Origin: an uncultured Gammaproteobacteria bacterium
GTDB taxonomy: Bacteria; Patescibacteriota; Patescibacteriia; UBA9934; GWF2-40-263
DNA length: 64,000 nt
Assembly (NCBI GenBank): GCA_964616135.1
Contig: CAZTTQ010000001.1
Location: forward strand, 43,875-107,874
Direction: 5' to 3'
Positions 3,742 through 59,799 of this stretch are shown here, piece after piece. Made by a program: the position numbers and the translations under genes. Under the pieces are notes generated by a model. The model was not told the DNA's origin, searched no databases, and saw only the letters and a program-made list of their open reading frames with translations. Position 1 is the stretch's first letter; each line of letters starts with the position of its first letter.

Positions 3742-5265
3742 TTACTCGGCGTCTGCCATTGCCGGGACGAACGTCACGGCGACGACGGACGGGGTGAGAT
3801 GGCGGCCGTTCGGGTGGAACAGGACGACGTCGCCGTCGCGCGGGAAGTAGCGGTGGTTGCCGCGTTCCTGCACGTAGAGCGTCTTTCCGTCCTCGACCGC
3901 CTGTTGGAAGCCGCCCTTGGGGTGGCGCCGCCGCACGATGGTGCCGAGTCGGTACCCCGCCAGCTGGAGATGGCGGCGAAGGGCCTTCTCCAGGCCATCG
4001 TCCTCGCGTCCCAGCTGCCGCCAGGCGACGTACACCTTGGAGGCGTTGGCGGACAGGAGGACCCGGCTCACGGTCTTGGCGTAAAAGCCGTGGCGCTCCT
4101 CCGGCGGCAGCTCCAGGAGGAGCGTGAACAGGAACTGCGCCGTCGGCTTCACGAGGAAGTCCTTCTCGACGGCCGCCAGCCGTTCCGCGAAGCGCGTGCG
4201 CTGGTCGACGGACAGACGTGCCCACTCGTCCGCGGGGACGTCCGAGACGGAATCGAGGCGGTCCAGCGCGTCTCCGACGATGATGTCCGCGGCGGCAGCG
4301 TCGAGGCGGCGCAGGATCCGCGCCCGCGCCTTGACCGTCTCGCCCGGGGCCTTCTCGGCGCAGAGGAGGAGTGCGGTCTCGAGCTCGCGGTTCGTCAGCA
4401 CGGACCAGGGGTTCAACCCGCAGAAAGCCGCCGTCCACTTCTCGGCCGCGGTCGGCCGCGCGTGCGGCGGAAACTCGAGCACGAAGTGGAAGGGGACGTT
4501 GGGCGGGAGACCGGCGTCCATCCGGGCGTTCTGCTCTGCCACCGTCTTCTCGATGGACGGCCAGGCCTTGTCCGGGGCACGGACGAGCTCGTCGTGGCGC
4601 CCGTTGCGCCCGTGTTCGATGCCCAGCCTCCGGACGGTCATCGCGATCGGACTTGCGTCCTCCGGTCGCTCGATCCCGTACCGTAGGAAGTCATGGACGT
4701 CGTTTGCCATCCCCGGTTCGATCCGCGTCCCGCGCAGGCGCTCGAGGAGCGCCTCGGCCATCGTCGCGCGGGAGACGCCTGCCATGGCGGCGGCACGCAC
4801 CCACTCGTTGTTGGTGGCGCCGAAGCGGGGATAGAGATCGCGGACGCAGCGGGTGCGGCCCTCGGGGGAGAGAAGCCGCAGCAGCTCCGGGGAGATGAGG
4901 AAGCTCCGGAAGAACCAGTGGGACGAGAGACGGACGCCCTCGTTCTTCTCCTGCGGATTTCCCTCCGCCCGGTCGTAGAGGCGGACCACGCTCTCCAGGA
5001 AGATGTCCGCGTCGCCGACGATCTGCAGGAACGGTTCCGGGTTCTCCGCGATCCAGCGCATTCCCATGGACACGGGGATCGTCTCGAACCCGCAGGCATC
5101 GATGAGGAGGATGAACCGCAGGAGGTCCGTCGGGGTCGCCGTGCCCGCCTTGACCTTCGCGGGGAAGGCGTCGCGGGCGGCCTGGAGTTCGTCGTAGGCC
5201 GTCCAGGTTCCCGCGATTTCCTGTCCCAGGATCTGTCGTGCGTCGATCAAGCTGACGGTCTGCAT
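3742..5265 (-). CDS. hypothetical protein (~507 aa), no recognisable family
   Basis: Protein-like composition and high GC3; start assigned to MQTVSL (M35) because the first 34 codons have low GC3 and the M35 ATG has GGAG 7 nt upstream; overlapping + strand ORF 3724..4686 has antisense-type composition. Confidence 0.6.
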   Translation of the reverse strand: MQTVSLIDARQILGQEIAGTWTAYDELQAARDAFPAKVKAGTATPTDLLRFILLIDACGFETIPVSMGMRWIAENPEPFLQIVGDADIFLESVVRLYDRAEGNPQEKNEGVRLSSHWFFRSFLISPELLRLLSPEGRTRCVRDLYPRFGATNNEWVRAAAMAGVSRATMAEALLERLRGTRIEPGMANDVHDFLRYGIERPEDASPIAMTVRRLGIEHGRNGRHDELVRAPDKAWPSIEKTVAEQNARMDAGLPPNVPFHFVLEFPPHARPTAAEKWTAAFCGLNPWSVLTNRELETALLLCAEKAPGETVKARARILRRLDAAAADIIVGDALDRLDSVSDVPADEWARLSVDQRTRFAERLAAVEKDFLVKPTAQFLFTLLLELPPEERHGFYAKTVSRVLLSANASKVYVAWRQLGREDDGLEKALRRHLQLAGYRLGTIVRRRHPKGGFQQAVEDGKTLYVQERGNHRYFPRDGDVVLFHPNGRHLTPSVVAVTFVPAMADAE

Positions 5266-19191: not shown

Positions 19192-19719
19192 CTACCAGCG
19201 AGGCTTGCCGCTGGCGCGGTCGCGCCGCTCGCGGAAGTAACGGTCCAGGACCGCCTGGTGGGTGGAGAAGACGAGCGTGTCTCCTTCGCGCAGGATGACC
19301 CGTTCCCGGACCTCGGCGTTCGGGACGAACGGGGGCAGGTCGCCGTTCAGGGCGGGAGTGATACCGAACAGCAGGATGATGTTCGATTCCGTCGCATCCC
19401 CCGCGTCGTACTGGAGGATCGAGTGCGGGGGCACGTGGATGCCCAGCTCCTCGTGCAGCTCCCGGGCGCCCGCGGCGCGCCACGGTTCGCGCCGGTTGAC
19501 GTACCCGCCGGGGAAGGCGAGGCCTCCCTTGCCGGGGTCGATATTCCGCCGCACGCCGAGCAGGCCGTCCCCGTAGGGAACCAGCAGAGCGGCGGCCGGC
19601 AGGGGGTTGCCGTATTCGACGTGCCCGCAGCCGGGACAGGTGAGAGGCCAGGCCTCTTGCTCGGGTAGGAGGTGCGTGCAGCGCGTGCAATGAAGGGCTT
19701 CGGGGATCGCGTCGGACAT
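19192..19719 (-). CDS. NUDIX hydrolase with N-terminal zinc ribbon (NudC-like architecture)
   Basis: NUDIX box (GGYVNRREPWRAAGARELHEELGI) plus CxxC...CxxC N-terminus; start at MSDAIPEAL (M57 of track ORF). Confidence 0.8.
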   Translation of the reverse strand: MSDAIPEALHCTRCTHLLPEQEAWPLTCPGCGHVEYGNPLPAAALLVPYGDGLLGVRRNIDPGKGGLAFPGGYVNRREPWRAAGARELHEELGIHVPPHSILQYDAGDATESNIILLFGITPALNGDLPPFVPNAEVRERVILREGDTLVFSTHQAVLDRYFRERRDRASGKPRW

Positions 19720-19759
19720 CCGTCTCCTCAAGTCCCGCCGGGAACGTGGCGGGAGAGGA

Positions 19760-19788
19760 ACGATAGGCGAAATAGGGCCCCTTGTCAA
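19760..19788 (-). promoter_or_regulatory. sigma70-type promoter TTGACA-N17-TATCGT (minus strand) for NUDIX gene
   Basis: Consensus -35, 17-nt spacer; sequence cgataggcg...ttgtcaa resembles the lipoprotein cassette promoter. Confidence 0.55.
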
Positions 19789-19833
19789 TCCGCCCTCGCC
19801 GCTTTTCGCCCGCCGGTTTACACTGTCCCCGCT

Positions 19834-22737
19834 ATGGCCAACCTCCTCGAGAACGCCAATCCGGAGCAGCTCTCCGCCATCACCCACCGGGAGGGGCCGT
19901 TGATGATTGTGGCCGGGGCCGGGACGGGCAAAACGTCCGTCATCACCCAGCGCATCGCCTGGTTGATCGAACAGGGCCTGGCGACGCCGGAAAACATCCT
20001 GGCGCTGACGTTCACGGACAAGGCCGCGGGCGAAATGGAAGAGCGCGTGGACCTGCTGTTACCGTTCGGCTACGCGAACCTGCAGATCTCCACCTTTCAC
20101 GCGTTTGCAGAAATGACGTTGCGCGAATGGGGCGTGGAAATCGGCCTGGCCAAGGACTTCACGCTGCTGGCCGAATTGGACGCGTGGCTCCTGACCCGCC
20201 AGCACTGGGACCGGTTCCAGCTGACCTACTACAAGCCGATGGGGAACCCGACCAAGTATTTGCGCGGGCTGCTTTCGCATTTCTCCCGGGCAAAGGACGC
20301 GGCGATTACCCCGGCGATGTACCGCGACTTCGTCACGCAGAAGGAACGCGACATGCCGCCCAATCCGACGGCGGAAGAACAGGACGAATTGGTGCGCGCG
20401 AAAGAACTGGCCGGCGCGTATGAAACCTACCAGGCGATTTTGCAGGAGAACGACGCCTGCGACTTCGGCGACCTGATGGTCTACCTGTTGGAATTGCTCC
20501 GCCGCCGCCCGCGCGCGCTGAACGCCATCCGCGAACGATTCACCTACGTTCTGGTGGACGAATTCCAAGACACGAACCAGGCGCAGTATGAAATCGTGAA
20601 GTTGGTCGCGGCGCCCCGCAACAACCTGACGATCGTCGGCGACGACGACCAGGCCATCTACAAGTTCCGCGGCGCCAGCATTGAGAACATCCTGCGCTTC
20701 TCGGCCGACTATCCGACGGCCAAGAAGGTGGTGCTCACGCGCAACTACCGTTCGGTCCAGCCGATCTTGGACAAGGCGCACGGATTCATCCAAGCGAACA
20801 ACCCGCGCCGCTTGGAAGCGAGCGACCCGACGTTGAACAAGAAGCTGTCGTCGGAGAAAGCCGGGGAAGGGAACGTGGAACACCTGCATTTCCCGTCGTT
20901 GGAGGACGAAGTGGACGCGGTCGCGATGAAGATCATGGAATTGAAGCAGCTCCATCCGGACGCGGAATGGAGCGACTTCGGCATCCTGGTCCGCGGGAAC
21001 GACGCGGCCAACCCGTTCTTGGGGCCGCTTGAACGCGCGGGCATTCCGTACCGCTTCCACGCGCTTTCCGGCTTGTACACCAAGCGCGTGTTGCTCGACC
21101 TGCTCGCGTTCTTGCGCGTGATCGACGACCCGTACGACGGCCCCAGCACCTACCGCCTGCTGACGCTGCCGATCCACGCCATTCCGGTAGAAGCGATCGT
21201 GGCGGTGACGCATGAGGCGCACAAAAAAGGGAAATCGCTCACGGACGCGTGCGAACTGGTGCGCGCGGCCGGCGGATTCGCCCCGGACGTGGCCGACAAA
21301 ATCGGCAGCCTGCTTTCCACCCTGGCCAAGCTGCGCGAGGACGCGCCGAAGATGCGCGTCACGGAGTTCTTCCTGAAGGTCGCCAAGGACACGGGCTACC
21401 TGCACTGGCTGAACCAGCAAAAGGAACAGCAGAAGCTGGAGGACTTCCGCTATTTGCAGCAATTCTACGAACGCCTGAAGCGGTTTGAAGAGCGCCAGGA
21501 CCATCCGGTTCTCCGGCGTTTCTTGGAGGAATTCAAGCATGAACGTGACGCGGGCGAGGACGGTTCGTTGGCCCAGGACGTAGAGGCGGGCCCGGACGTC
21601 GTGAGTATCATGACTGTGCACGGTTCCAAGGGGTTGGAGTTCCGGTTCGTGTTCGTCGTGTCGTTGGTGGACCGCAAATTCCCGGCGCAGGCGCGCGCGG
21701 AAAGCATCCCGCTGCCCGCGGGGCTTCTTCCGGCCGAAGCGGAAGACGGCGACGCGCACTTGGAAGAAGAACGCCGCCTGTTCTACGTGGCCGTGACGCG
21801 CGCCAAGGAACACCTGTACTTCACGTCCGCGGACGACTACGGCGGCAGCCGCAAGCGCAAGCCGTCGCGGTTCTTGGTCGAATTGGGATACGTGGAAGAG
21901 CAGAAGAAACTGACCAAAAAGGAACGCGACCTCGCAAAACAGATCGAAGCGGCGGGGAAGCCGCCCGAACCCGTTTCGGACGACATGCCGGTGATTGAAG
22001 TGCCCAAGGCGTTTTCGTTCACGCAGTTGGCCGCGTTCGCCAGTTGCCCGTTGCAGTACAAGTTTGCCCACGTCTACAAGATCCCGATCTTCGGCAGCCG
22101 GTCGATGTCGTTCGGCAAGACGGTCCACAACGCGCTGCAGCAGTTCTTCCAAGCGTGGATTGACCGGAAGGGAGGGGTGACGCTGGATGAACTCGAATCC
22201 TTCTACCGTGACCACTGGCAGGATGATTGGTACAAGGACGACAACGAGCGCGAGCAATTCCGCCAGCAGGGCCTGGACATGTTGCGGACGTATTACGGAA
22301 CCCTGGCCGAAGCGAAGCCGGATCCGCTGTTTCTGGAACAAGCATTCACGTTGAAACTGGCCGGCGTGATCTTGAAAGGACGCATCGACCGCATCGACCG
22401 CTGCGGCGACGGCGTGGAAATCATCGACTACAAGACCGGCAGCCCGAAAACCGAAGACGACTTGAAAAAGGACAAGACCAAAAAGGAACAGCTGTACCTG
22501 TACCAGCTGGCGGCGCGCGACGTGTTGGGCTTGGACGTGAAGAAACTGACGTTCCATTATTTGGAAGACGGTTCCCGCGTGTCGTTCCTGGCGGATCCGG
22601 GCGAACTGCTCACGTTCCAAGAGGACCTGGCGGACCGCGTGGAGCGCATCAAGAAGGGCGTGTTCGACGCGACGCCTGGCTTCCATTGCCGGTTCTGCGA
22701 CTTCAAGGACATCTGCGAATTCAGGGCGAAAGAATAA
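19834..22737 (+). CDS. UvrD/PcrA-family ATP-dependent DNA helicase fused to C-terminal PD-(D/E)XK (Cas4/AddB-like) nuclease with Cys cluster
   Basis: The helicase region has Walker A GAGTGKT, motif II DEFQDTN and UvrD motifs. The C-terminal ~250 aa carry RIDRID...DYKTG...QLYLY and CRFCDFKDIC, typical of RecB-fold nucleases with an Fe-S cluster. Start is MANLLEN (M55). Confidence 0.85.
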   Translation: MANLLENANPEQLSAITHREGPLMIVAGAGTGKTSVITQRIAWLIEQGLATPENILALTFTDKAAGEMEERVDLLLPFGYANLQISTFHAFAEMTLREWGVEIGLAKDFTLLAELDAWLLTRQHWDRFQLTYYKPMGNPTKYLRGLLSHFSRAKDAAITPAMYRDFVTQKERDMPPNPTAEEQDELVRAKELAGAYETYQAILQENDACDFGDLMVYLLELLRRRPRALNAIRERFTYVLVDEFQDTNQAQYEIVKLVAAPRNNLTIVGDDDQAIYKFRGASIENILRFSADYPTAKKVVLTRNYRSVQPILDKAHGFIQANNPRRLEASDPTLNKKLSSEKAGEGNVEHLHFPSLEDEVDAVAMKIMELKQLHPDAEWSDFGILVRGNDAANPFLGPLERAGIPYRFHALSGLYTKRVLLDLLAFLRVIDDPYDGPSTYRLLTLPIHAIPVEAIVAVTHEAHKKGKSLTDACELVRAAGGFAPDVADKIGSLLSTLAKLREDAPKMRVTEFFLKVAKDTGYLHWLNQQKEQQKLEDFRYLQQFYERLKRFEERQDHPVLRRFLEEFKHERDAGEDGSLAQDVEAGPDVVSIMTVHGSKGLEFRFVFVVSLVDRKFPAQARAESIPLPAGLLPAEAEDGDAHLEEERRLFYVAVTRAKEHLYFTSADDYGGSRKRKPSRFLVELGYVEEQKKLTKKERDLAKQIEAAGKPPEPVSDDMPVIEVPKAFSFTQLAAFASCPLQYKFAHVYKIPIFGSRSMSFGKTVHNALQQFFQAWIDRKGGVTLDELESFYRDHWQDDWYKDDNEREQFRQQGLDMLRTYYGTLAEAKPDPLFLEQAFTLKLAGVILKGRIDRIDRCGDGVEIIDYKTGSPKTEDDLKKDKTKKEQLYLYQLAARDVLGLDVKKLTFHYLEDGSRVSFLADPGELLTFQEDLADRVERIKKGVFDATPGFHCRFCDFKDICEFRAKE

Positions 22738-36571: not shown

Positions 36572-37792
36572 TCAGAATGACGGGAGGTATGGCAGCGGAT
36601 TCACCGGAATGCCTTCTTTGCGGACTTCAAAGTGCAGGTGCGGGCCCGTGGACAATCCGGCGCCGGGCGACCCGGCAAGGCCGCCGGAGAGCGCGATCAC
36701 GTCGCCGCGGTTCACGAACTGGTCCGGCTTTACGAGCGGCTTGGACAAGTGGGCGTACAAGGTCGCCAGACCGTCCGCGTGGATGATCATGACGTAGTTG
36801 CCGTATTGCGACCCTTTGCGGACCCAGGCAACGTATCCAGGCGCCGCAGAACGGACCTGCGTTCCTTGGGGCTGCGGGATGTCCAAGCCCATGTGCTCAA
36901 ACAGGTAGCGGAACGGATACGTGGGGTCATGGAACAAGGTGGAAAGACCGCGGTAGCTTGGGTCCACCGGCCACGCCATCGGGCCGCTGGTGTCTTCCCC
37001 GTCCAATTTTGATTCCAGTTGGCGTTGGAGCTTTGCCACTTCGCCGTTGGTCCGCTGCTGTTCTTCTTTTAGGTCCAGCAGGAGCGTGCGGAACTGGTTT
37101 TCAGACGACTTGGTGGCGGCCAGCAAGCCTTCCTTGGCCCCCGTCTCCGTCTGCAGGCGCGTCTTCATGGTTTGGAGCTGGCCTTCCAGTTCTTCCAACC
37201 GCTTGCGCTTGCCGTCTTTGGCCGCGCGCGTGGCAAGCAGTTGGTCCCGGGCAAGTTTTGCCTTGCGCGACGCTTCGGCGAGGTCCGTATTGAGGTTTTC
37301 CAGTGACTGGAGGCGGTCGAAAATCTCTCCGAACGTCTCCGAGCCGAACAGGACCTGCAGGTTCATGTCGTTGTCCAGCGAATTGATGCGCAGCAAAAGC
37401 TGGGACATCAGTTCTCGCTGACGGGCCAGACGCGCGTTGGCGTCCGCCGCCTGGCGGTCCAAGACGGCAATCTCCGCGTTCACGGCGTCCATGTCCACGT
37501 GCGTCGCCTCCAGGTCCAGGTTGGTCTTTTCCACGCGGTTGGACAGGAGGTCCAACGAATCCTTGAGGGACTTCCCTTCCTGCTCTTTCTTTTTGATCTG
37601 CGCGCTGTACGTGTCGATGCGCCGCTGCAAATCCGTGAGCCGCGCCTTGCTGGCGGCGATGTCCTCATTGAGGCTGCGGATGCCGACGTCTTCCAATGGC
37701 AGGGTCCCCGTTTGCGCATACGTAAAACCGACCCCACCGGAAACGAGGAATATCGCACCCAGCAACGTCGGAAGAACGCGCATGTACTTCAT
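36572..37792 (-). CDS. M23-family peptidoglycan metalloendopeptidase with N-terminal coiled coil (EnvC-like)
   Basis: Signal peptide, long coiled-coil, C-terminal M23 motifs (HxxxD...GPHLHFEV). Confidence 0.8.
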   Translation of the reverse strand: MKYMRVLPTLLGAIFLVSGGVGFTYAQTGTLPLEDVGIRSLNEDIAASKARLTDLQRRIDTYSAQIKKKEQEGKSLKDSLDLLSNRVEKTNLDLEATHVDMDAVNAEIAVLDRQAADANARLARQRELMSQLLLRINSLDNDMNLQVLFGSETFGEIFDRLQSLENLNTDLAEASRKAKLARDQLLATRAAKDGKRKRLEELEGQLQTMKTRLQTETGAKEGLLAATKSSENQFRTLLLDLKEEQQRTNGEVAKLQRQLESKLDGEDTSGPMAWPVDPSYRGLSTLFHDPTYPFRYLFEHMGLDIPQPQGTQVRSAAPGYVAWVRKGSQYGNYVMIIHADGLATLYAHLSKPLVKPDQFVNRGDVIALSGGLAGSPGAGLSTGPHLHFEVRKEGIPVNPLPYLPSF

Positions 37793-45489: not shown

Positions 45490-46458
45490 TCAAGTCCCCT
45501 CCTCTGCCGCGCAGGCGGCGAACGTGCGGGTAAACAGGGCGCGGTCCAGGGCGCGGCCAATCAGTACCACGTCGCTCCGGCGCTCTTCCCCCTCCTTCCA
45601 CGGACGGTCAGGCAGCGTTTCGAAATGGTGGTGCACGCCTTGGAAGACGAAGCGCTCCTCGCGTCCCTCGATGAAGAGGATGCCCTTGTAGCGCATGAGC
45701 TGGTCCCCGTTCAGCAACAGCGTTTCCGCGACCCAGCGGGACACCTTGGCCAGCGCGAGCGGTCGGGTTTCCTTTAACGCCACGCTCATCACGGCCGGGT
45801 TGTGGCCGTGGCGGTCTTGGGAAAAGCCCGTGGCGCGTTCATACGCCCGTCCGGAGGCGTTGGGCGCGAAGAGAACGTCCAGCGGGAGCTCCGAGCGCAC
45901 CGTGCGGACGACGCGGACGTGCTCGTTGTATTTCCGGATGACGTCCTCCAGTCTGCGCAGCGCGTCGGGGGCGACCAGGTCCGTCTTGTTGAGCAGGACG
46001 ACGTCCGCCGCGGCCAACTGTTCCGCCGCCTCCTTGGTTTCGGCCAGCTGGCCCTCCAAGTGGAACGCGTCCGCCACGGTGACGATGGAATCCAGCGCGT
46101 ACGCCTTGGCGAGCGAGGGGCGGTTCAGGAACGCCTTTACCAACGGGAACGGGTCGGCCAGGCCCGTGGTTTCGATGAAGACGCGTTCGAGACTCCCTCC
46201 CTCCCGCTTCAATTCCAACAGCTGCACCAACGCGTTGGCGGTGTCGCCGAGGGCGGCGCAGCAAATGGCGCCGTTCGACAGGGTCACGGTGGCGCCGGTG
46301 CCTTCCGGCAGGATCTGGTCGTCGATGCCGACGTCGCCGAATTCGTTCACCACCACCGCGACGCGGCGGCCGTGGAAGTCGTTCAGCAGGCGGTTCAACA
46401 GCGTGGTTTTGCCCGCGCCGAGAAAGCCGGTGATGAGGGTGACGGGGATGTGGGACAT
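45490..46458 (-). CDS. CobW/COG0523-family G3E GTPase (putative metal chaperone)
   Basis: Walker A GFLGAGKTT, CxCC-type motif (GAICCA), 322 aa. Confidence 0.75.
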   Translation of the reverse strand: MSHIPVTLITGFLGAGKTTLLNRLLNDFHGRRVAVVVNEFGDVGIDDQILPEGTGATVTLSNGAICCAALGDTANALVQLLELKREGGSLERVFIETTGLADPFPLVKAFLNRPSLAKAYALDSIVTVADAFHLEGQLAETKEAAEQLAAADVVLLNKTDLVAPDALRRLEDVIRKYNEHVRVVRTVRSELPLDVLFAPNASGRAYERATGFSQDRHGHNPAVMSVALKETRPLALAKVSRWVAETLLLNGDQLMRYKGILFIEGREERFVFQGVHHHFETLPDRPWKEGEERRSDVVLIGRALDRALFTRTFAACAAEEGT

Positions 46459-48430: not shown

Positions 48431-48468
48431 CCCCGCCACTCCGATCTGGAGCCGGCGGGGATTTTTTA
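48431..48468. terminator. bidirectional terminator repeat copy 2
   Basis: ccccgccactccgatctggagccggcgggg + ATTTTTTATT; also directly follows ATPase stop on minus strand with TTGCGTTT tail. Confidence 0.65.
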
Positions 48469-50325
48469 TTCCGCAGAAGCGACGCGCAGCGCGTTCAAGA
48501 TGACGACGACGTCCACCGCCTCCTGCAGGATGGCGCCGTAGAGCGGCGGGAGATATCCGGCCGCGGCGACGCCCATGAGGAGAAACGACAGCGCCATGCC
48601 GAGTTGGATACCGCCGACGGCGACGCTCACCGTGCGTTTGGCGATGGCGCGGACTTCCGCGACCTTGTGTACGTCGTCCAAGGTGATGACGATGTCCGCC
48701 GTTTCCGCGGAGGCGGCGGATCCGTTCGCCCCCATCGCGATACCGACGTCGGCGGCAGCCAGCGCGGGCGCGTCGTTCACGCCGTCGCCGACCATGGCTA
48801 CCGCGCCGCGGGTTTGGAGCTGGGCGATCCGCTTCACCTTGTCGCCCGGCAGGCATTCGGCAAACACGCGGCTGACGCCCGCTTCTTTTGCCAGGGCCTT
48901 TGCGACGGTCTCTTTGTCGCCGGTGAGCAATTCCACGTCCTTTACGCCCGCGCGGCGCAGTTCCGCGACGAACGCGGCCAGTCCGGGACGGGCCTTGTCC
49001 GAAAACGAGATGGATCCGCGGAGCCGGTTCCCTTCTGCCAAATATACGGTGCGGATGCCGCGGGACTTTTTCTTTTCCGCGTCCTTTGCCAACGCCCCCG
49101 GGATGGCGACGCCTAATCCCTTGAGGAAGCTGAGGCGGCCGAACGCGTACGTCTTTCCGCCCAGGCGGCCGGTGACGCCGCGGCCCACGTCTTCCTTAAA
49201 GCGTTCCGGGAACGGCAGAGCGAGTCCGCGCTCTTCTGCCTGAGCCGTCAGGGTGCGGGCCAATACGTGGGACGATCCCTGGTCCAAGGACGCGGCGAGG
49301 CGCAGTACGTCTTCTTCCGAGCCGTATTCGGCGGCAATCCCGCGTACGACCGGCGTGCCGAACGTGAGCGTGCCGGTCTTGTCGAAGACGAACGCGCGGG
49401 CGCGGGCCAATACCTCCAAGGCCCCTCCGTGCTTCACGATGATACCCCGGCCCGCCGCCCGGCTGATGCCGGAAATCATGGCGATCGGCGTGGCCAGGAT
49501 AAGCGGGCACGGCGTGGCCACCACTAGCACGGCCAGCACGCGCGTCGGATCGCCGGAAACCATCCACGCCCCCGCGGCCACCAAGAACGTGACGAGGGTG
49601 AAGAATCCGCTATACCGGTCCGCCAGGCGCACGAGCGGCGCTTTTTTGCTTTCCGCCTCCTGCACGAGCGTCACGATGCGTCCGTATTGGCTTTCCGCCG
49701 CGTTGGAGAGCGCGCGGACGGTCAGAAGCGATCCGCCGTTGACGGCGCCGCCGGGAATGCGGCTGTGCGGCGCCACGTCCATGGGCAGTGATTCGCCCGT
49801 CAGGCGCGATGCGTCCATTTGTCCCGTCCCTGCGATGACCACCGCGTCCACCGGCACCACGTCACCCGGTTTAACGGCCAAGCGGTCGCCCGCCTTTACC
49901 TGTTCTACCGGCACGTTTTTCACTTTGCCGCGCACGTACAGGTGCGCCACGGTCGGCGCGGCGGACAACAGCGCCCGGAGCGATCGGCGCGCACGGACGA
50001 GCGCATACGCTTCCAGCGCTTCGCCGCCAGAAAGCATGAGCAAGATGACGCAGCCGGCCACCCACTGGCCGAAGAAGGCCGCCGCGCCCATGGCCGCGAC
50101 CGCGATCACGTCCACGCCGAACCGGCCCTTTGTGAGCTGGCGCAACAGACCGGCTGCCGCGGGGATCCCGCCCGCCGCCAGGAGCAGGACGAACGCCGGC
50201 AGCGCCGCTTCCGCTCCTGATCGGGACTGCCAAGCCAGCGCCGCTCCAAACCACAACGCGAACACGACCGGTTGCACCAAGGCGTGCGCGGCGCGGGAAC
50301 GCTCCTCCTGAGCCTGCTGTTTCAT
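48466..50325 (-). CDS. P1B-type heavy-metal-translocating P-type ATPase (no N-terminal HMA domain)
   Basis: CPx (ATPCPLILATP), DKTGTLT, GDGVNDAPAL; start MKQQAQEE with TATACT box 7 nt upstream (possibly leaderless). Confidence 0.85.
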   Translation of the reverse strand: MKQQAQEERSRAAHALVQPVVFALWFGAALAWQSRSGAEAALPAFVLLLAAGGIPAAAGLLRQLTKGRFGVDVIAVAAMGAAAFFGQWVAGCVILLMLSGGEALEAYALVRARRSLRALLSAAPTVAHLYVRGKVKNVPVEQVKAGDRLAVKPGDVVPVDAVVIAGTGQMDASRLTGESLPMDVAPHSRIPGGAVNGGSLLTVRALSNAAESQYGRIVTLVQEAESKKAPLVRLADRYSGFFTLVTFLVAAGAWMVSGDPTRVLAVLVVATPCPLILATPIAMISGISRAAGRGIIVKHGGALEVLARARAFVFDKTGTLTFGTPVVRGIAAEYGSEEDVLRLAASLDQGSSHVLARTLTAQAEERGLALPFPERFKEDVGRGVTGRLGGKTYAFGRLSFLKGLGVAIPGALAKDAEKKKSRGIRTVYLAEGNRLRGSISFSDKARPGLAAFVAELRRAGVKDVELLTGDKETVAKALAKEAGVSRVFAECLPGDKVKRIAQLQTRGAVAMVGDGVNDAPALAAADVGIAMGANGSAASAETADIVITLDDVHKVAEVRAIAKRTVSVAVGGIQLGMALSFLLMGVAAAGYLPPLYGAILQEAVDVVVILNALRVASAE

Positions 50326-50403
50326 GCGGCCCAGTATAGCGCGTCTTCCCACCCCACCCCAAACCCTGGCGGAATACGGGGATCTCGCCTACACTTCCCC
50401 CGT

Positions 50404-50913
50404 ATGCGTCTCCCTACGAGAAAATCAGAAACCGACCGTATCGCCCTCCAGGGAGAACCGGACCGCTTCCTTACGCCGGAGACCATGGAACGGATGCGGC
50501 GCCAAATTTACGACCTGGAAACCGTCCAGCGCCCGTCCGCTAAGTTGGAGCTGCAAAAAGCGCAGGAAATGGGCGACTTGTCCGAAAACTTCGGCTATCA
50601 GGAAGCCAAACGCCGGCTGCGCAACATCAATGACCGCATCGTGATGCTGGAAGAAAAGCTCAAAGTTGCCGTCCCGATCCACGCCGGGTCTGAAGACGGC
50701 AAAATCCGCATCGGTTCCACGGTCACGGTGGAAACCGGCGGCAAGGAGACCGAATACATGATCGTCGGTGCGCAGGAAGCCATGCCGCTCCGTCGCAAGA
50801 TTTCGTATCTGTCGCCGCTTGGTGCGCTCCTTATGGGCAAATCCGCGGGCGACGTCGTGACGGTCAAAACCGAACGCGGCGACGCCGTCTACCGCATTTT
50901 GTCGGTCGCGTAA
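50404..50913 (+). CDS. GreA/GreB-family transcription elongation factor (second paralog)
   Basis: MGDLSENFGYQEAKRRLR and C-terminal domain similar to 29090..29542 product. Confidence 0.75.
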   Translation: MRLPTRKSETDRIALQGEPDRFLTPETMERMRRQIYDLETVQRPSAKLELQKAQEMGDLSENFGYQEAKRRLRNINDRIVMLEEKLKVAVPIHAGSEDGKIRIGSTVTVETGGKETEYMIVGAQEAMPLRRKISYLSPLGALLMGKSAGDVVTVKTERGDAVYRILSVA

Positions 50914-52562: not shown

Positions 52563-53762
52563 TTACCATCCCGCCAGCGTACGCAGCTCGTTTCGCCTGG
52601 TTTCAAAGGCTTGACGCGCGTCCGCCTTTATGGGGTCTCCCGCCGGAAATTCGACCTCCAGCGGGTTCACCAATTTGCCGTTGTACGAAACCTCGTAGTG
52701 CAGGTGGGGTCCGGTCGAAAAGCCCGTGGACCCGACGTAGCCGATGACCTGCCCTTGGCTGACCGTACTTCCCTTCTTGACGCCCTTGGCGAAGGCGGAC
52801 AAGTGCGCGTAGTTGGTGCCGTACGTGTCGTTGTGGCGGATCTTGACGAAGTTCCCGTAGCCGGCGGAATTCCATCCCGCGAACGTGACGACGCCGTCAC
52901 CGACGGCCTTGACCGGCGTCCCGACGGCGGCCGCGTAGTCGATGGCGCGGTGCGGCGCGGTCTTTTGGGTGACCGGGTGGAAACGCGCGTACGTGAACCC
53001 GGACGTGATGCGGTTGAAAGCGAGCGGCGCCTTCAGGAACGCGCGCACGAGCGAGTTGCCGTCCGCGTCGTAGTAGCCGCCCTTGCCGTCCTGCTCAAAC
53101 CAAAACGCCTCTTGGCGCTTCCCGGCGTTGGTGAAGCTTGCGGCCAGCACGCGCCCGACGCCGGCGTCCTTGCCGTCGCGGGTCCGCGTCTCGTACAGCG
53201 TCTGGAACGTGTCTCCTACGCGCGTCTGCGTGGCGAAATCGATCGTCCAGGCGAACGCCTCGGCCATCTCCAGCACGGCGATCTCCGGGATGCCGGCGTC
53301 CAAGGCGGACACGTACAGCGACGAGTCGATGGTGCCGGACCCGGTTTTGAGCGCCACGTCGTAGGCGATGGGTTCCTCTTTGGCCGTCCAGGCGTCGCCC
53401 GCCGGTTCCGCGACGACAACGCGCGCGTTGTCCGGCTCGTACGAAATGGAGAGCAAGGCGCCGTCCAGGGATTCGGTGCGGACCAAGGCGCGGCCGACGC
53501 GCACGCGGGTGAAGTCGTACACGTCCGCGGCCGACGCGGCGAGCGCGATGGCCTGCGCGTACGACAGCCCCAAGTCCTGGGCCGCGACGGCGAAGGTCTC
53601 GCCTTCCCCGATGACGTGTTCCTTCCGCACGGTGCGCGGCGCCTCGGGCACGACGGGCGCCGGAACCGAAGCGGCGGGCGAAACGGACGCGGGTCGCAAG
53701 AACCAAACGCTCCCGCCGACGAGCAGCAAGGCGGCGGGAATCGCGAGATAGGCGCGGCGCAT
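52563..53762 (-). CDS. M23-family peptidoglycan metallopeptidase (N-terminal OapA/LysM-like region)
   Basis: HRAIDYAA...GYGNFVKIRH...GPHLHYEV. Confidence 0.8.
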   Translation of the reverse strand: MRRAYLAIPAALLLVGGSVWFLRPASVSPAASVPAPVVPEAPRTVRKEHVIGEGETFAVAAQDLGLSYAQAIALAASAADVYDFTRVRVGRALVRTESLDGALLSISYEPDNARVVVAEPAGDAWTAKEEPIAYDVALKTGSGTIDSSLYVSALDAGIPEIAVLEMAEAFAWTIDFATQTRVGDTFQTLYETRTRDGKDAGVGRVLAASFTNAGKRQEAFWFEQDGKGGYYDADGNSLVRAFLKAPLAFNRITSGFTYARFHPVTQKTAPHRAIDYAAAVGTPVKAVGDGVVTFAGWNSAGYGNFVKIRHNDTYGTNYAHLSAFAKGVKKGSTVSQGQVIGYVGSTGFSTGPHLHYEVSYNGKLVNPLEVEFPAGDPIKADARQAFETRRNELRTLAGW

Positions 53763-53826
53763 AGCCGCCCTACGATACCAAACCGCGCGCGAACAAACAA
53801 AACGGACCCCGAAGGGTCCGGTTCGC

Positions 53827-54270
53827 TTAGATCAGGTTTACGTCCTGAACCACTTCCTTGCCGCCTTCTTCCTCATCTTCGCCGTCTTCGTCGATGTCCT
53901 CCGTGAGGGCTTCGATCAGGGCGTCGAGCTTTTCTTCAATGCGGGCCAAGCGGGCTTCTACCTTGCCCAAGTCCAGGCCGGCGGACGGACGGGACTGGTA
54001 GGCCGGGCGTTCCGCGCGGTCGCCGCCGAAGGACGGGCGGTCGAACGAGCGCTTCGGGCCGGAAACCATGCCCTGGTCGTCTTTCTTGAAGCAGTTGCGG
54101 CAGTAGACCGGCTTGGAACCGTTCGGAATGAACGGGACCTGGCACATGTCGCCGCAGCCGTCGCACTTGGCGTCATGCTTCGGGCGGTCCTGGAATCCAC
54201 CGTAACGGCGTCCGCCGTTGCTAAAGCCACCGGCGCCACCACCACGATTGTCGCGAAAATTATTGTACAT
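53827..54270 (-). CDS. small protein: Gly/Arg-rich (RGG-like) N-terminus, C4 zinc ribbon, acidic C-terminal tail
   Basis: CDGCGDMC...CRNC cysteines; composition consistent with coding; hairpin+T-rich terminator at ~53790-53818. Confidence 0.5.
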   Translation of the reverse strand: MYNNFRDNRGGGAGGFSNGGRRYGGFQDRPKHDAKCDGCGDMCQVPFIPNGSKPVYCRNCFKKDDQGMVSGPKRSFDRPSFGGDRAERPAYQSRPSAGLDLGKVEARLARIEEKLDALIEALTEDIDEDGEDEEEGGKEVVQDVNLI

Positions 54271-54386
54271 ATTGGAATTCGCGAAGGATAGCGGAATCCG
54301 CGCGAAAAGTCAATGGCCGGAGGCCTTATTCGAACAAATGGCGCGGACTGGGGCGTTTTGGCGGGACGACGGGCGACTCCGCAGGG

Positions 54387-54797
54387 TTACGCTTTGCGTA
54401 CGACGGCGTTAAAGGCGGCGGACGCTTGCTCCGGCGGAATGCCGAACTTGCCCAACTGCTTGATGACCTTTTCTTCCTTGGCGCAGTTGCCGCAGAAATT
54501 GGAGACGTTGCGATCCAACCCGACGTGCGCGTACAGGTCACGCCAGACGGCCAGGCGGTCCATGAACTTTTTTACCGAACCGAGGCTGGATTTCCACAGC
54601 GTGCCGTTCAGGCCGAAGCGCCAGTGCGCCCACAGCTGGCCGAAATGCATCACGTCGCCCCACTCTTCCTTCATCCCCGCCTTGTTCCACTTAACGACCT
54701 CCACGGCGAATTCAACCACCTCCGCCCACACTTCTTTGAAGCGGACGCGGTCTTTTGACGTGAACTTCTCGATGTACTCCCGGATGGTCATGTCCAT
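54387..54797 (-). CDS. MazG-like nucleotide pyrophosphohydrolase domain protein
   Basis: EVVEFAVEVV...EEWGDVMHFGQLW resembles MazG EExxE/EELGD motifs; alternative ATG at 54836. Confidence 0.5.
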   Translation of the reverse strand: MDMTIREYIEKFTSKDRVRFKEVWAEVVEFAVEVVKWNKAGMKEEWGDVMHFGQLWAHWRFGLNGTLWKSSLGSVKKFMDRLAVWRDLYAHVGLDRNVSNFCGNCAKEEKVIKQLGKFGIPPEQASAAFNAVVRKA

Positions 54798-54836
54798 ATG
54801 GCGGCCATGGTACGATATCGCAAACGTTTCGCCCAT

Positions 54837-55229
54837 ATGCCCAGTATTCCCGCCGACCTTCGCAAGGCCCTTGCGGCTAACCCTGTAGTCGCGGCCAAGT
54901 GGAAGGACCTTACGCCCGTCTCCCGCCGGGACTTCACCCGTTGGATCGAAGGGGCGAAGCAAGAAGCGACCCGCAAGCGCCGCGTCGTGGTCGCGTGCGA
55001 CAAACTGAAGCGCGGCGACCGCCGCCCGTGCTGTTACGCCGTGGTCCCGATGCCGCTCTACCGCGCCCTGGGCGCCAACCCAAAGGCCAAAGCGGCGTGG
55101 AGCGCCCTTTCCGCCGACCACAAGCGCGACCTGGTCGACTGGGTCGAATCCCCCAAGCCGCCGGAGACGCAAGCGGACCGGATCAAACAAGCGTGCGTAA
55201 AACTCGCCACTGGGAACGTCCGTGCGTAG
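54837..55229 (+). CDS. YdeI/OmpD-associated family protein (tandem helical repeats)
   Basis: LRKALAANPVVAAKW...RRDFTRWI and second repeat YRALGANPKAKAAW...RDLVDWV. Confidence 0.5.
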   Translation: MPSIPADLRKALAANPVVAAKWKDLTPVSRRDFTRWIEGAKQEATRKRRVVVACDKLKRGDRRPCCYAVVPMPLYRALGANPKAKAAWSALSADHKRDLVDWVESPKPPETQADRIKQACVKLATGNVRA

Positions 55230-55261
55230 ACAAAAACCGGCCTGATGGGCCGGTTTTTGCG

Positions 55262-55495
55262 TTAGTTCTTCCACCGTGGGGCAAATCGGACGCTCCAGGC
55301 AAACAACGACGCGAGCAACGGGTGCATGCCGTTTTTGACCATACCTTGGCGGCACACCTCTTGAAACCCCTTCAGGTCACCCTCATAGCACAACCTTCCG
55401 TCCTTAAAGCAGTAGCTGCAATACCGCGGGTCTTCACGCTTCCCGAGGTCCTTTGCGAACGGCATGAGGCAGCTTTGGCAGGCATTTTGGTTCAT
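55262..55495 (-). CDS. small zinc-ribbon domain protein (77 aa)
   Basis: CQSC...CSYC...C pattern; start MNQNACQSC. Confidence 0.45.
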   Translation of the reverse strand: MNQNACQSCLMPFAKDLGKREDPRYCSYCFKDGRLCYEGDLKGFQEVCRQGMVKNGMHPLLASLFAWSVRFAPRWKN

Positions 55496-55502
55496 ATGGC
55501 AA

Positions 55503-55928
55503 CTAGGAATTTTGATCAAACTCCACGGTCCATTCAATCCCGAACTTGTCGCGGAACATGGCAAAGGAGGTTCCCCACGGACTTGCAGCCATCGGCATCT
55601 CTACCGCGCCGCCTGCCGAGAGGCCGTTGAAAATCCGTTCCGCTTCTTCCTTACTGTCCACCGTGACGGAGATCTTGCTCCGGTTTTCATTTTCATTGAC
55701 CGGTCCCAAGAAACTGGGAACGTCGTTGGCGATCAACGTGTTGTTCCCAATGGGCAACACGATGCGCATGATCTTGTGTGCGTCCGCGTCCCCTACCGGA
55801 AATTCAGGACCCGCGATGTCTTTGAATCGAATGATCTTGCCAAACTCGCCACCGAATACGGATTTGTAAAAGGTAAACGCTTCTTCTGCGTTTCCATTGA
55901 AGTTGATCCACGGGTTGATGGAGGGCAT
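55503..55928 (-). CDS. VOC-family protein (glyoxalase/bleomycin-resistance fold, PhnB-like)
   Basis: 141 aa, typical VOC pattern. Confidence 0.65.
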   Translation of the reverse strand: MPSINPWINFNGNAEEAFTFYKSVFGGEFGKIIRFKDIAGPEFPVGDADAHKIMRIVLPIGNNTLIANDVPSFLGPVNENENRSKISVTVDSKEEAERIFNGLSAGGAVEMPMAASPWGTSFAMFRDKFGIEWTVEFDQNS

Positions 55929-55933
55929 AGGCG

Positions 55934-56374
55934 TTATTCAAGGTTGAGCGCGCGTGTCGGTTTCATGATGGCAAGCGGGTCTGTTTTCCACGCGTCGGAA
56001 ACGTCCGCGTACAGTTCAAGCTCGTTTCCGTCCGGGTCCAGGATGTAGATGCTGTGCGTCACGCCGTGGTCGCCCGTGCCGATGATGGGCACGCCTTTCT
56101 CCTTCAGCTCCTTGTACGCCTGCTTGGCGGCTTCCGGCCCGTCGCCGATCTTGAAGCCGATGTGGTACAGCCCGGGCTTGGTTTCTTCCTTGCGTTCCGG
56201 TTCCCCGCCCACTTCCAGCAGCAACATTTCATGGTGCGTGCGCCCGGCGGAAAACGCCGCCGCTCCCGGCCGGCGCGTCAGTTCCTGAAACCCAAGCGTG
56301 TCGCGGTAAAAATCCGCGGAGCGCTGCAGGTCGCTCACGAAGAGCACGACATGGCCGAGTTCGAGGATGTGCAT
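55934..56374 (-). CDS. VOC-family protein (glyoxalase I-like)
   Basis: MHILELGHVVLFVSDLQRSADFY...HIGF typical glyoxalase-fold metal ligands. Confidence 0.7.
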   Translation of the reverse strand: MHILELGHVVLFVSDLQRSADFYRDTLGFQELTRRPGAAAFSAGRTHHEMLLLEVGGEPERKEETKPGLYHIGFKIGDGPEAAKQAYKELKEKGVPIIGTGDHGVTHSIYILDPDGNELELYADVSDAWKTDPLAIMKPTRALNLE

Positions 56375-56381
56375 AGAAATT

Positions 56382-56398
56382 TATTCCCCTTTCGTTAA
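56382..56398. repeat. left copy of 17-bp imperfect direct repeat TATTCCCCTTTCGTTAA bounding low-GC island
   Basis: 15/17 identity with 58533-58549; positioned exactly at the GC-content break. Confidence 0.45.
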
Positions 56399-56441
56399 GC
56401 CGTTGTCGGAAACGAACTAGACCAGCGGGGTATAGGAAAAA

Positions 56442-58238
56442 CTATAGGTTTGTATCTATCCAATCAAAGATCTGGTTGAATCGAGTAATTGTGTCGATAT
56501 GAATTTTTTTCTTAGTAATTGATCCATCCGACACTTTCTCAAAAAAAGATTTAGCAAATACAATCTTCCGTTTTTCACCGATGGACTCAGCTGGATCTGT
56601 TTTTTGAACAATTTTATCGTCAATTAACTTTAAGTCATCCAAATGAAGTAGGTTTTCTACGGATGAAATTCCAATAGTGATATACATCTTGGAGGCAGCA
56701 GCTCCCTCGTCTTTTTCGAAGAGATGTTCTTTGATTTCTTCGTAAGTTTTTTGAGAATCTTTTCCTCGCGAAGAATCGTCATCGAAAATTGCGACCCAAG
56801 AAATACCGTAACCAATACAAAATGAAACTAGAGTGTATTGTTTTCTGACACCTATTCCCGGTATGAAGGCGTAGTCTGCAATATCACGTTTGAGGAGGGT
56901 TCTCATTGCACTGTAGTAATAAAAATCTGAAACTCCTTCCAGAATCACACTCTTTTTATTTGTCAGCCCAAAATCGCTTACCGAGAAGCCAATAGCATTT
57001 GCCACTGGCTGGAGTGCATCTTGTTTATTCTGAGAATCAATTTTGGAGGAAGTGATATTCTCTATCAATGTTCCTTTGGTTTTATCATTTACGATGAGGT
57101 GTATTCTTTCAAGATGATCTGTCCTGATCAAATTTGGCGAATGAGTTGAGTAGAGAAATTGATGCCCCGTTTTTGTTAGAGATTCAAATACATTGAGGAT
57201 GTCGGTCTGAGCTTTTATATGAAGATAGAGTCCGGGTTCATCCGCTAAAACAATCAATTCTCTCTCATGACCACTCGCCTGTAATTCCATCCAAAAAGAA
57301 AGAAACCATACCAATCCCTTACTCCGCATTCGGGGACGAATTTTTTGTTTATCCTTTGTCTCAATATAAAAACTTACAAAAGTGTCATCTTCGGAAGATC
57401 GTTTTTCGAATTTATAGGCAATTTTTACTCTATTATCACCGTGAATTTGTTGCTTCCATGCTTTTGTAAAATCAATCGATATAGCTTCATTATGTTTTTC
57501 CTCAATAGAGTCTCTCTTCAAGTCATCTAGACTGTACAGAGTTTTAAAATCTGCACCTGATATTTTTTCAAAGTTTTTTACGGCCTTATACCCTTTTGAA
57601 TCTTTTTTGTCGCTTTTTAGATCCTTAAGCGAGAAGGTGTCTGGCAATAGATCGCAGAAATCATTAAACAAGATGATTTTAGGAGTATGGTTCCAGAATA
57701 ACTCAGCGACTTCTGAATTCTGATCGTCAGTAAGTTCAATAATCTTTTTCCTCTCCTTCTTTACTGGAGCAACTTCTGCCTCCACATTAACGTCTTCTTC
57801 AAGAATAGAGCTACGAAAGATCTGAAAAACTGCTTCAGGGATAGATGTCTGCACCTTTTTAGAGGGATTTAGCGTTCGAGTAATTTTAAAATCTTTTACC
57901 GTGCGTTTCAGTTTTGGGATGTCAATTAATGATCCGACTTTAGCTCGCTCAATCTCATTCTGTTCACCAAATGTTTTTTCAATTTCATCCCAAAAATCAG
58001 AATCCGATTCTTCAATTTCGTATGTGCATGACACCTCTTGAATTGGTGACTCAAAATCAAATGGTATGGAATCTGATTCAAATTCTGCGTTTTCAAAAGC
58101 AGCCAGACCCTCTAAAATAGAGCTTTTACCAGACTCATTTTGACCAGCGAAAATTGCAATTCTCCCATTACCTAAAGAAATCTCTCCAGTATCCTGAATG
58201 GACTTATAATTCTTAATTCGGAATGATTTCAATTTCAT
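56442..58238 (-). CDS. OLD-family ATP-dependent endonuclease (ABC-type ATPase + C-terminal Toprim), standalone
   Basis: The ATPase half has Walker A GQNESGKSS, Walker B LIVLADEPGLYLH and H-loop STHSP. The Toprim half has Glu (VILEGVSD) and DxD (IFDDDS). Gene GC is ~35% against a ~65% background. Confidence 0.75.
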   Translation of the reverse strand: MKLKSFRIKNYKSIQDTGEISLGNGRIAIFAGQNESGKSSILEGLAAFENAEFESDSIPFDFESPIQEVSCTYEIEESDSDFWDEIEKTFGEQNEIERAKVGSLIDIPKLKRTVKDFKITRTLNPSKKVQTSIPEAVFQIFRSSILEEDVNVEAEVAPVKKERKKIIELTDDQNSEVAELFWNHTPKIILFNDFCDLLPDTFSLKDLKSDKKDSKGYKAVKNFEKISGADFKTLYSLDDLKRDSIEEKHNEAISIDFTKAWKQQIHGDNRVKIAYKFEKRSSEDDTFVSFYIETKDKQKIRPRMRSKGLVWFLSFWMELQASGHERELIVLADEPGLYLHIKAQTDILNVFESLTKTGHQFLYSTHSPNLIRTDHLERIHLIVNDKTKGTLIENITSSKIDSQNKQDALQPVANAIGFSVSDFGLTNKKSVILEGVSDFYYYSAMRTLLKRDIADYAFIPGIGVRKQYTLVSFCIGYGISWVAIFDDDSSRGKDSQKTYEEIKEHLFEKDEGAAASKMYITIGISSVENLLHLDDLKLIDDKIVQKTDPAESIGEKRKIVFAKSFFEKVSDGSITKKKIHIDTITRFNQIFDWIDTNL

Positions 58239-58438
58239 AGGGTATGTCAGAAACTGGTTCAGAGTTATCTATTAAACTTATCGACTTTGGGTAGGAGCTC
58301 GCTCGCAAGAATATTGATCAACACATCGCGACACACCCCAATCGCTGCGCTGCCCAGCTTCCCAAAATTATTCTTTTGAATCTTCGTAGTTTGCATCATA
58401 AACGAAAGGATGATCGTCAACGGAGTCAGAAACATTAA

Positions 58439-58475
58439 TACTCCCGTCGGATTTGAACCGACCAGGCCACAAGCA
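58439..58475 (-). tRNA. tRNA 3'-half-like fragment (T-arm GTCGG-TTCAAAT-CCGAC + acceptor 3' strand GGGAGTA); no complementary 5' half found
   Basis: Canonical T-stem-loop read on minus strand; cannot complete a cloverleaf, so probably an att-site remnant/pseudo-tRNA. Confidence 0.35.
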
Positions 58476-58531
58476 AGCCCCTGCCAGAATCGACAATGTT
58501 GTAAAGGTTCTCTTCTTCTAACGTATCACCC

Positions 58532-59386: not shown

Positions 59387-59396
59387 AGGGACGGGA

Positions 59397-59789: not shown

Positions 59790-59799
59790 ACGAACGTGG

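Follow-up and report, generated by a model that had tools for sequence, protein, structure and literature searches.

The locus and its protein

We analysed a 64,000-nucleotide (nt) stretch of contig CAZTTQ010000001.1, referred to below as the window, and in it a gene for a small zinc-finger protein that is a member of a catalogued, functionally uncharacterised family, PF23477/TIGR04272. The open reading frame (ORF) has exactly the position given in the initial annotation; the three sequence strings quoted there were all found, in the order described, and the translations of the segments agreed. The gene, its flanking signals and the segments of its product, given in amino acids (aa), are listed here, with the predicted local distance difference test score (pLDDT) of an AlphaFold2 (AF2) model where it applies.

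53827..54270 (-), coding sequence, from ATG to stop codon, for the 147-aa protein with the CxxC-x17-CxxC domain
54285..54313 (-), sigma-70-like promoter candidate TTGACT-N17-TATCCT, the sole promoter-like site in 53600..54500
53793..53820 (-), intrinsic terminator CGGACCC-UUCG-GGGUCCG followed by UUUUGUUUGU, starting 7 nt after the stop codon
54166..54270 (-), residues 1-35, basic Gly/Arg/aromatic-rich segment MYNNFRDNRGGGAGGFSNGGRRYGGFQDRPKHDAK, predicted disordered, pLDDT <60
54079..54186 (-), residues 29-64, zinc-finger domain RPKHDAKCDGCGDMCQVPFIPNGSKPVYCRNCFKKD, the PF23477/TIGR04272 match, pLDDT 82-88
53971..54078 (-), residues 65-100, linker of low complexity with repeats of the FDRPSF/ERPAY type, pLDDT 43-56
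53893..53970 (-), residues 101-126, amphipathic heptad helix LGKVEARLARIEEKLDALIEALTEDI, helical in AF2, pLDDT about 70
53830..53901 (-), residues 124-147, poly-acidic tail EDIDEDGEDEEEGGKEVVQDVNLI, net charge -11, isoelectric point (pI) 4.05

The GC content of the ORF by codon position was 0.66/0.43/0.76, and this order (third above first above second position) matches that of other genes in the window. Compared with two relatives, L001 (94% identity) and L083 (76%), the ratio of nonsynonymous to synonymous substitution rates (dN/dS) was 0.096 and 0.25, respectively. From the codon-position pattern and these ratios, we conclude that ORF 53827..54270 is a real gene under purifying selection. 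When dN/dS against relatives was computed by segment, it was 0.05-0.13 in the N-terminal arm, about 0-0.07 in the zinc domain and 0.10-0.13 in the helix; the linker and the tail were the fastest-evolving segments. The identical 147-aa protein was also found on an NCBI contig and on a Logan contig. A check of conservation in related genomes, as the initial annotation had proposed, showed the ORF to be conserved (dN/dS 0.10-0.25) and to belong to a large family.

The hidden Markov model search proposed alongside it identified that family. PF23477 (zf_Tbcl_2, Pfam) matched at 54 bits against a curated cut-off of 27 (E 1.3e-14, profile positions 1-36 of 37), and the NCBIfam model TIGR04272, 'CxxC-x17-CxxC domain-containing protein', matched at 53.2 bits against a cut-off of 36 (E 1.8e-14). 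The same name, assigned by JGI, is carried by a 93%-identical homologue. No defence family in PADLOC matched the zinc-finger protein at E <=0.01. In the literature, we found no paper that names PF23477, TIGR04272 or zf_Tbcl_2, and one relevant paper for 'CxxC-x17-CxxC' (PMC12704099). Two Methanosarcina mazei small proteins with the domain bind zinc, as measured by inductively coupled plasma mass spectrometry, and proteomics detected them with high confidence; that paper offers a role in transcription as speculation only (PMC12704099). Within the family, zinc binding has been measured for these M. mazei members only.

The protein has a five-part layout: a basic Gly/Arg/aromatic N-terminus, one Cys4 motif, a low-complexity linker, a 26-residue heptad helix and an acidic tail. 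The AF2 model, which was built from a 20-sequence alignment and contains no metal, is disordered outside the finger and helix 101-126. The Cys4 unit reads C36-x2-C39-x17-C57-x2-C60, with C36-DG-C39 and C57-RN-C60 as its pairs and residues 40-56 between them. A fifth cysteine, C43, is invariant among the aligned close and distant homologues; because it is missing in some multi-repeat proteins, the four paired residues C36, C39, C57 and C60 are the likely zinc ligands. The family core between the pairs, VPF-x-P-x-G-x-KP-[VI]-x-C, is present in the window protein. In alignments of 20 to 45 sequences, C, VPF, P, G and P were invariant; V45, P46, F47, P49, G51 and P54 were invariant in alignment A1, and in the domain alignments A2 and A3 these columns vary little or not at all (G in at least 90%). 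Residues 31-60 of the model (pLDDT 82-88) form a beta-hairpin (32-35/42-45) and a short helix (58-61), and in Pfam the domain is listed as a zinc finger that is probably a treble clef. Of the 'C4 zinc ribbon' described for this protein, the Cys4 unit is correct, while the predicted fold differs from a classical two-hairpin ribbon.

Residues 1-35 have a net charge of +4 and a pI of 10.4, with a Gly content of 9/28 at the N-terminus. Closely spaced di- or tri-RGG/RG repeats, which define an RGG/RG box, are absent from this arm, and the likeness is compositional only; its description as 'RGG-like' holds for composition and fails for a canonical RGG box, since there is a single RGG triplet. The linker differs in length and sequence among homologues. 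The helix, which the initial annotation did not describe, lies between the finger and the tail and has a 3-4-3-4 core, read from the sequence as L101, V104, L108, I111, L115, L118, L122 and I126; K114, L115 and D116 show little or no variation in alignment A1. This pattern points to a putative short coiled coil for oligomerisation, and the core, with Leu at a and Val/Ile/Leu at d, hints at a higher-order oligomer, in keeping with general knowledge of coiled coils. The poly-acidic tail was confirmed at residues 124-147.

Distribution and architecture of the family

An initial protein search returned 22 homologues, all with PF23477. With a full-length profile, searched against 1.84 billion representatives, 6664 clusters (50% identity) were matched at E <=1e-3 and 3943 at E <=1e-10; the best 150 full-length matches were all 122-339 aa long, and nearly all had 2-5 matched stretches, consistent with repeated fingers. 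An alignment-based scan of one genome per species confirmed at least 599 loci, whereas a scan of the genome collection with peptides from the window protein by itself gave no relative; viral contigs, when scanned, yielded none either. Among the 80 loci kept from the at least 599, those with informative titles were nearly all Patescibacteria, with Uhrbacteria, Paceibacterota, Saccharimonadales, Doudnabacteria, Peregrinibacteria and Dojkabacteria represented. To judge from its MetRS, which shares 63-74% identity with Patescibacteria, Uhrbacteria, Magasanikbacteria and Parcubacteria proteins, the genome from which the window derives is likewise that of a Patescibacterium. We note that the records behind L002, L004, L005, L008, L015-L017, L019 and others (CAZ.../CAY...) are titled 'uncultured Gammaproteobacteria bacterium' and carry a Patescibacteria-typical gene; these titles look like placeholder or wrong taxonomy. 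The domain order had been considered unusual for a bacterial protein. This view was not upheld: the curated domain family has thousands of members in Patescibacteria, and the architecture is therefore typical of that lineage, not an oddity.

The architecture was compared across 82 homologues and their loci, that is, 81 fetched loci (L001-L081) and the window, from which, together with alignment A1, we defined a Patescibacteria-type full-length subfamily. Each locus has one gene of the zinc-finger family, encoding about 90-306 aa, with one finger in 70 of the 82 and two in the other 12; the domain was not found in any other ORF of these loci. The N-terminus is positively charged in 81 homologues, and the helix core motif is present in 60. 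The window protein follows the pattern of the subfamily, with a basic Gly-rich arm, one to two fingers, a K-L-D heptad helix and a charged tail. Over their last 25 residues, 26 homologues are acidic, 43 are basic and Lys/Ala-rich, and 13 are neither. Basic tails were found in 12/12 Paceibacterota-labelled and 3/3 Parcubacteria-labelled genomes, and acidic tails in 6/9 of those labelled Uhrbacteria. The acidic tail is a lineage variant, and the tail charge flips while arm, finger and helix stay conserved.

A search with the domain alone returned 990 proteins, the best of which were stand-alone forms of 42-74 aa; those with names came mostly from DPANN and methanogenic archaea. In the minimal archaeal form, the finger sits between a short RG flank and a K/R tail, a make-up that would be expected of nucleic-acid binders. 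Informative fusion partners were not seen, as the best 120 domain-only matches were all stand-alone forms in this size range and the best 150 full-length matches did not exceed 339 aa. Seven stand-alone homologues, archaeal and other (P0053, P0055, P0070, P0078, P0079, P0121 and P0136) are named 'DNA-directed RNA polymerase' in NCBI/nr, and their precomputed Pfam assignment is PF23477 only. Upon rescanning, P0053 and P0055 matched only PF23477 above threshold, as did the unlabelled P0045. We therefore rejected an identity as an RNA polymerase subunit, and the name looks like a propagated mis-annotation. In one metagenome-assembled genome (L097), two tandem 52-aa stand-alone copies of the domain (4001..4159 and 4430..4588) lie near an Obg/TGS-type GTPase and a Ski2-like helicase.

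Transcription unit and gene neighbourhoods

In a 900-nt scan around the zinc-finger gene, one promoter-like site was observed against 0.1 expected in shuffled sequences. The -10 box lies just 14 nt ahead of the ATG, and no purine run resembling a Shine-Dalgarno sequence is in sight, so the leader of the mRNA would be very short. The -35 and -10 boxes, together with the stretch to the ATG, are kept in L001, L083 and L084, despite a different upstream gene in L001; a small GGCC hairpin upstream of the -35 box was not unusually stable (z = 0.49). The terminator folds at -20.9 kcal/mol (z = -5.3), and none of 200 shuffled sequences folded as well. Its stem and T-run are kept in the same three relatives, and the single stem-loop change in L001 falls in the loop.

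An M23 peptidase gene (52563..53762, same strand) begins 64 nt downstream of the zinc-finger stop codon, the adjacency to which the initial annotation had drawn attention. Given its own promoter-like site and strong terminator, the zinc-finger gene is most probably monocistronic and probably not co-transcribed with the M23 gene. The adjacency is correct as to position, but it carries no functional signal: the terminator stands between the genes, an M23 peptidase is a neighbour in 6 of the 82 loci, and the order zinc finger-M23-MsrA-prepilin peptidase is kept in close relatives only. We regard it as lineage-specific local synteny, and, given the conserved terminator and the neighbour statistics, we rejected an operon with the M23 gene. 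Within the interval 53763..53826 (-), the terminator T-run is followed by a weak TATCGT box, 9 nt ahead of the M23 ATG. This box was read by eye and lies outside the sites reported by the scan; transcription of the M23 gene may thus start separately, with a short leader. The window gave no match in scans for Rfam families and tRNA genes.

Neighbour families were obtained by all-against-all clustering of ORFs within 6 kb in the 82 loci, and the counts include related genomes as they are, uncorrected for shared ancestry. The commonest neighbour was an ABC-F ATPase, full-length in 28 loci and assigned by NCBIfam as ribosomal-protection-like or EttA-like. It lies within 600 nt of the zinc-finger gene in 15 loci, from lineages labelled Uhrbacteria, Paceibacterota and Minisyncoccia, and is co-directional in 14 of these (10 upstream, 4 downstream). 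The two genes stand directly side by side in L003, L006, L013, L018, L028, L053, L054, L071 and L077, among others. Other neighbours were a TIGR00275 flavoprotein (14 loci), MsrA, an RluF-like rRNA pseudouridine synthase and a DEAD-box RNA helicase (10 loci each). No consistent pattern of tRNA genes was seen near the homologues.

Genes related to metal transport were also found. In eight sampled contexts of stand-alone homologues, a ZIP/ZupT-like transporter gene is directly adjacent in two (one divergent, one convergent, with other neighbours differing) and two genes away in a third, where the Pfam hit is faint; the other five have no ZIP gene. Among loci of the candidate phyla radiation (CPR), L022 and L045 have a ZIP gene immediately upstream of the full-length gene, and L009 and L020 have one at a distance of up to 5 kb. 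The ZIP/ZupT-like genes, whose orientations differ, and two genes of the window are listed here.

L090-L092, 3101..3850, ZIP/ZupT-like gene, beside a stand-alone (archaeal-type) homologue
L094/L095, 4220..4975, ZIP/ZupT-like gene, beside a stand-alone (archaeal-type) homologue
L022, 5016..5816, ZIP/ZupT-like gene
L045, 5062..5832, ZIP/ZupT-like gene
Window, 45490..46458 (-), COG0523/YjiA-like GTPase, 7.4 kb from the zinc-finger gene
Window, 48466..50352 (-), heavy-metal P1B ATPase (TIGR01525, 518 bits; cadmium/zinc-type subfamily, 469 bits), 3.5 kb from the zinc-finger gene

The order of the P1B ATPase and COG0523 GTPase genes is the same in the relatives L084 and L085. A link of the family to zinc supply is suggestive, if thin.

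Further genes of the window are as follows.

54387..54797 (-), 136-aa protein without a family match
54798..55229 (+), OmdA/YdeI protein (E 7.5e-36)
55262..55564 (-), Zn_ribbon_2 protein
56442..58238 (-), 598-aa AAA_15 ATPase, best PADLOC matches Old, AriA and PtuA
36572..37792 (-), second M23 peptidase, EnvC/PcsB-like in appearance, its N-terminal part a long coiled coil
19672..22737 (+), UvrD-helicase/PD-(D/E)XK nuclease fusion, AddA-like

The first three are likelier genes than a 322-aa reverse-strand ORF in 54387..55355, upstream of the zinc-finger gene, which appears to be largely a high-GC artefact. The AAA_15 ATPase, probably a horizontally acquired defence gene, lies in a low-GC island (56000-60000; 0.42-0.52 against about 0.63 elsewhere) that is absent from the syntenic position in L001 and L083.

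Possible functions and comparison with known systems

We tentatively propose that the protein is a zinc-stabilised, oligomeric binder of nucleic acid, probably RNA, in which arm and finger bind, the helix oligomerises and the tail modulates; we consider this reading quite possible, though somewhat short of an even call. One Zn2+ held by C36, C39, C57 and C60 would fold a 30-residue knuckle, and the knuckle and the adjacent basic Gly/Arg/aromatic arm would jointly contact nucleic acid. The ligand would more likely be RNA than DNA, possibly ribosome- or translation-associated RNA; RNA is favoured because of the neighbour spectrum and the analogy with the zinc finger and RGG flank of FUS. Through the heptad helix, the protein could form a parallel oligomer and so combine several weak arms into one multivalent binder. 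The acidic tail might tune binding, either by folding back on the basic arm (auto-inhibition) or by recruiting basic partner proteins, and the Lys-rich tail that other lineages have on the same scaffold would add to binding and not damp it. The initial annotation had likewise suggested a nucleic-acid-binding factor. That part of its proposal is retained as the most reasonable one in view of the basic arm beside the finger, the very basic stand-alone archaeal forms, the Lys-rich tails and the RNA/translation-type neighbours; residues 1-100 have a pI of 9.3.

Several observations weigh against this reading. Nucleic-acid binding is a putative activity throughout the family, and the oligomeric state is predicted solely by the heptad pattern. 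With a pI of 4.9 and a net charge of -6, the protein as a whole is acidic, and the arm holds one RGG triplet and one RG, with 51 of the 82 homologues having no RGG in the arm at all. The structure search that had been proposed as a check was run with the AF2 model and gave no significant neighbour, and profile searches of PDB sequences found no solved structure with the domain. The PDB profile matches were chance stretches in C2H2 linkers, the eS26 tail and coiled-coil segments, none of them individually significant; whole-chain E values were 0.0012 for tandem C2H2 repeats and otherwise at least 0.25, and the resemblance of the helix to coiled-coil and tetramerisation segments was non-significant (E 0.25-7). 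Among the neighbours, whose counts carry the uncorrected shared ancestry mentioned above, DNA-related genes also recur (DnaX in 9 of the 82 loci, a RecD2-like helicase in 8), as do ZIP transporters next to family homologues. The ABC-F, DEAD-box helicase and RluF genes are absent from the 64-kb window, so the link to translation does not come from this locus.

A broader version of the proposal would make the family a Patescibacteria-wide RNA- or ribosome-associated zinc protein, archaeal in its minimal form, that works with ABC-F, whose supply is tied to zinc uptake and whose tail-charge switch tunes RNA affinity. We consider this version, taken as a whole, unlikely. If true, ultra-small cells would have in this protein a translation factor specific to their lineage or a multivalent RNA scaffold of the FUS type. 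Patescibacteria genomes are about 1 Mb, and a small protein kept in several of their lineages likely serves a core process. The conserved heptad helix, the flip of tail charge by lineage and the linkage to ABC-F and, in some lineages, to ZIP offer starting points for work on function. The window ORF is a routine family member, and the interest lies in the family, not in this locus.

Alternatively, the protein could be a DNA-binding nucleoid-associated (histone-like) protein whose finger and arm bind DNA and whose oligomerising helix bridges or compacts it, which we regard as unlikely. Lys/Ala-rich tails are seen in histone-H1-like bacterial DNA binders and are found in the 43 homologues mentioned above, and the DnaX and RecD2-like neighbours would fit such a role. 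However, the tail is acidic in the window protein and 25 other homologues, RNA/translation-type neighbours are more frequent, and the Gly/Arg/aromatic composition of the arm is more typical of RNA-binding disorder (PMC5570134). A zinc-economy protein, in the sense of an abundant small Cys4 zinc buffer, reservoir or acceptor coupled to transporters, like the zinc-ribbon ribosomal proteins, appears quite unlikely. The ZIP genes near stand-alone homologues (3/8 contexts, one of them faint) and in CPR loci L022, L045, L009 and L020 speak for it, as do the P1B ATPase and COG0523 GTPase genes of the window, with their order kept in relatives, and the zinc binding and ready proteomic detection of the M. 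mazei homologues (PMC12704099). Nevertheless, ZIP is present in only 4 of the 82 CPR loci, seemingly from one or two lineages, and is absent from the window; moreover, one Cys4 site per 147 residues would make a poor buffer, and the basic arm and heptad helix would go unexplained. This role and nucleic-acid binding are not mutually exclusive.

The remaining alternatives fared worse. The initial annotation had also offered a chaperone-like factor, and an adaptor or chaperone with an acidic tail for basic proteins such as ribosomal proteins could draw on the tail's net charge of -11 after an oligomerising helix, as acidic tails are known among chaperones in general. We consider it improbable, because no DnaJ-type or other chaperone family in Pfam matched at E <=1 and because the tail is the least conserved part of the protein and basic in most homologues. 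A DnaJ-type finger was likewise rejected: the sequence reads C-DG-C-G-D-M-C, the CxxCxGxG pattern is absent, and DnaJ_CXXCXGXG gave no hit at E <=1. A DksA/TraR-like regulator acting in the secondary channel of RNA polymerase is highly improbable. The protein has the CxxC-x17-CxxC spacing of DksA/TraR and shares with them a helix and acidic residues, greA lies about 3 kb away (50272..50913), and some archaeal homologues are labelled 'DNA-directed RNA polymerase'. But PF01258 (zf-dskA_traR) was not matched at E <=1, and the polymerase-labelled homologues match only PF23477. The domain order is also reversed: in DksA/TraR the finger follows a coiled-coil hairpin, whereas in the window protein it precedes a single short helix, predicted at 26 residues, with no hairpin. 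With the x17 spacing as the only point in common between the fingers and the helix C-terminal to the finger, we rejected a DksA/TraR identity. Least probable of all is a partnership with the adjacent M23 peptidase in cell-wall remodelling. The M23 gene is close and on the same strand, and close relatives share the gene order through MsrA and prepilin peptidase; against this stand the strong conserved terminator, the rarity of M23 neighbours (6/82), and a sequence that has no signal peptide-like or membrane segment and the composition of a cytoplasmic disordered protein.

For the proposed zinc-stabilised nucleic-acid binder, we used the FET proteins (FUS/EWS/TAF15; RGG, RanBP2-type finger, RGG) as a working analogy. 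In FUS, the finger and the flanking RGG disorder cooperate in RNA binding (PMC12344763, PMC5570134). The window protein likewise has a small Cys4 finger flanked by Gly/Arg/aromatic disorder. It differs from the FET proteins in that there is no homology, a single RGG, no RNA recognition motif and no prion-like domain, and in being bacterial, with a coiled-coil helix and an acidic tail. A RanBP2-type finger was rejected, as zf-RanBP in Pfam gave no match at E <=1 and a zf-RanBP structure match in Foldseek was non-significant (E 9.2). Zinc-ribbon ribosomal proteins (the Cys forms of bL31, bL36, bS14 and others) are small, basic, abundant zinc-binding RNA binders. The window protein resembles them as a small Cys4 protein with basic flanks and with possible ties to zinc supply (ZIP) and translation genes, but ribosomal chains in the PDB were matched only by the chance stretch of 10 residues in eS26. 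The closest comparison is with M. mazei A00184 and A01980 (TIGR04272 'cxxc_cxxc_Mbark'/PF23477), which have the same domain, Cys spacing and VPFxPxGxKP core as the window protein. Whereas the archaeal members of the family are stand-alone fingers of 42-74 aa with short basic flanks, the window protein extends this minimal form by a disordered arm of greater length, a linker, the conserved heptad helix and an acidic tail.

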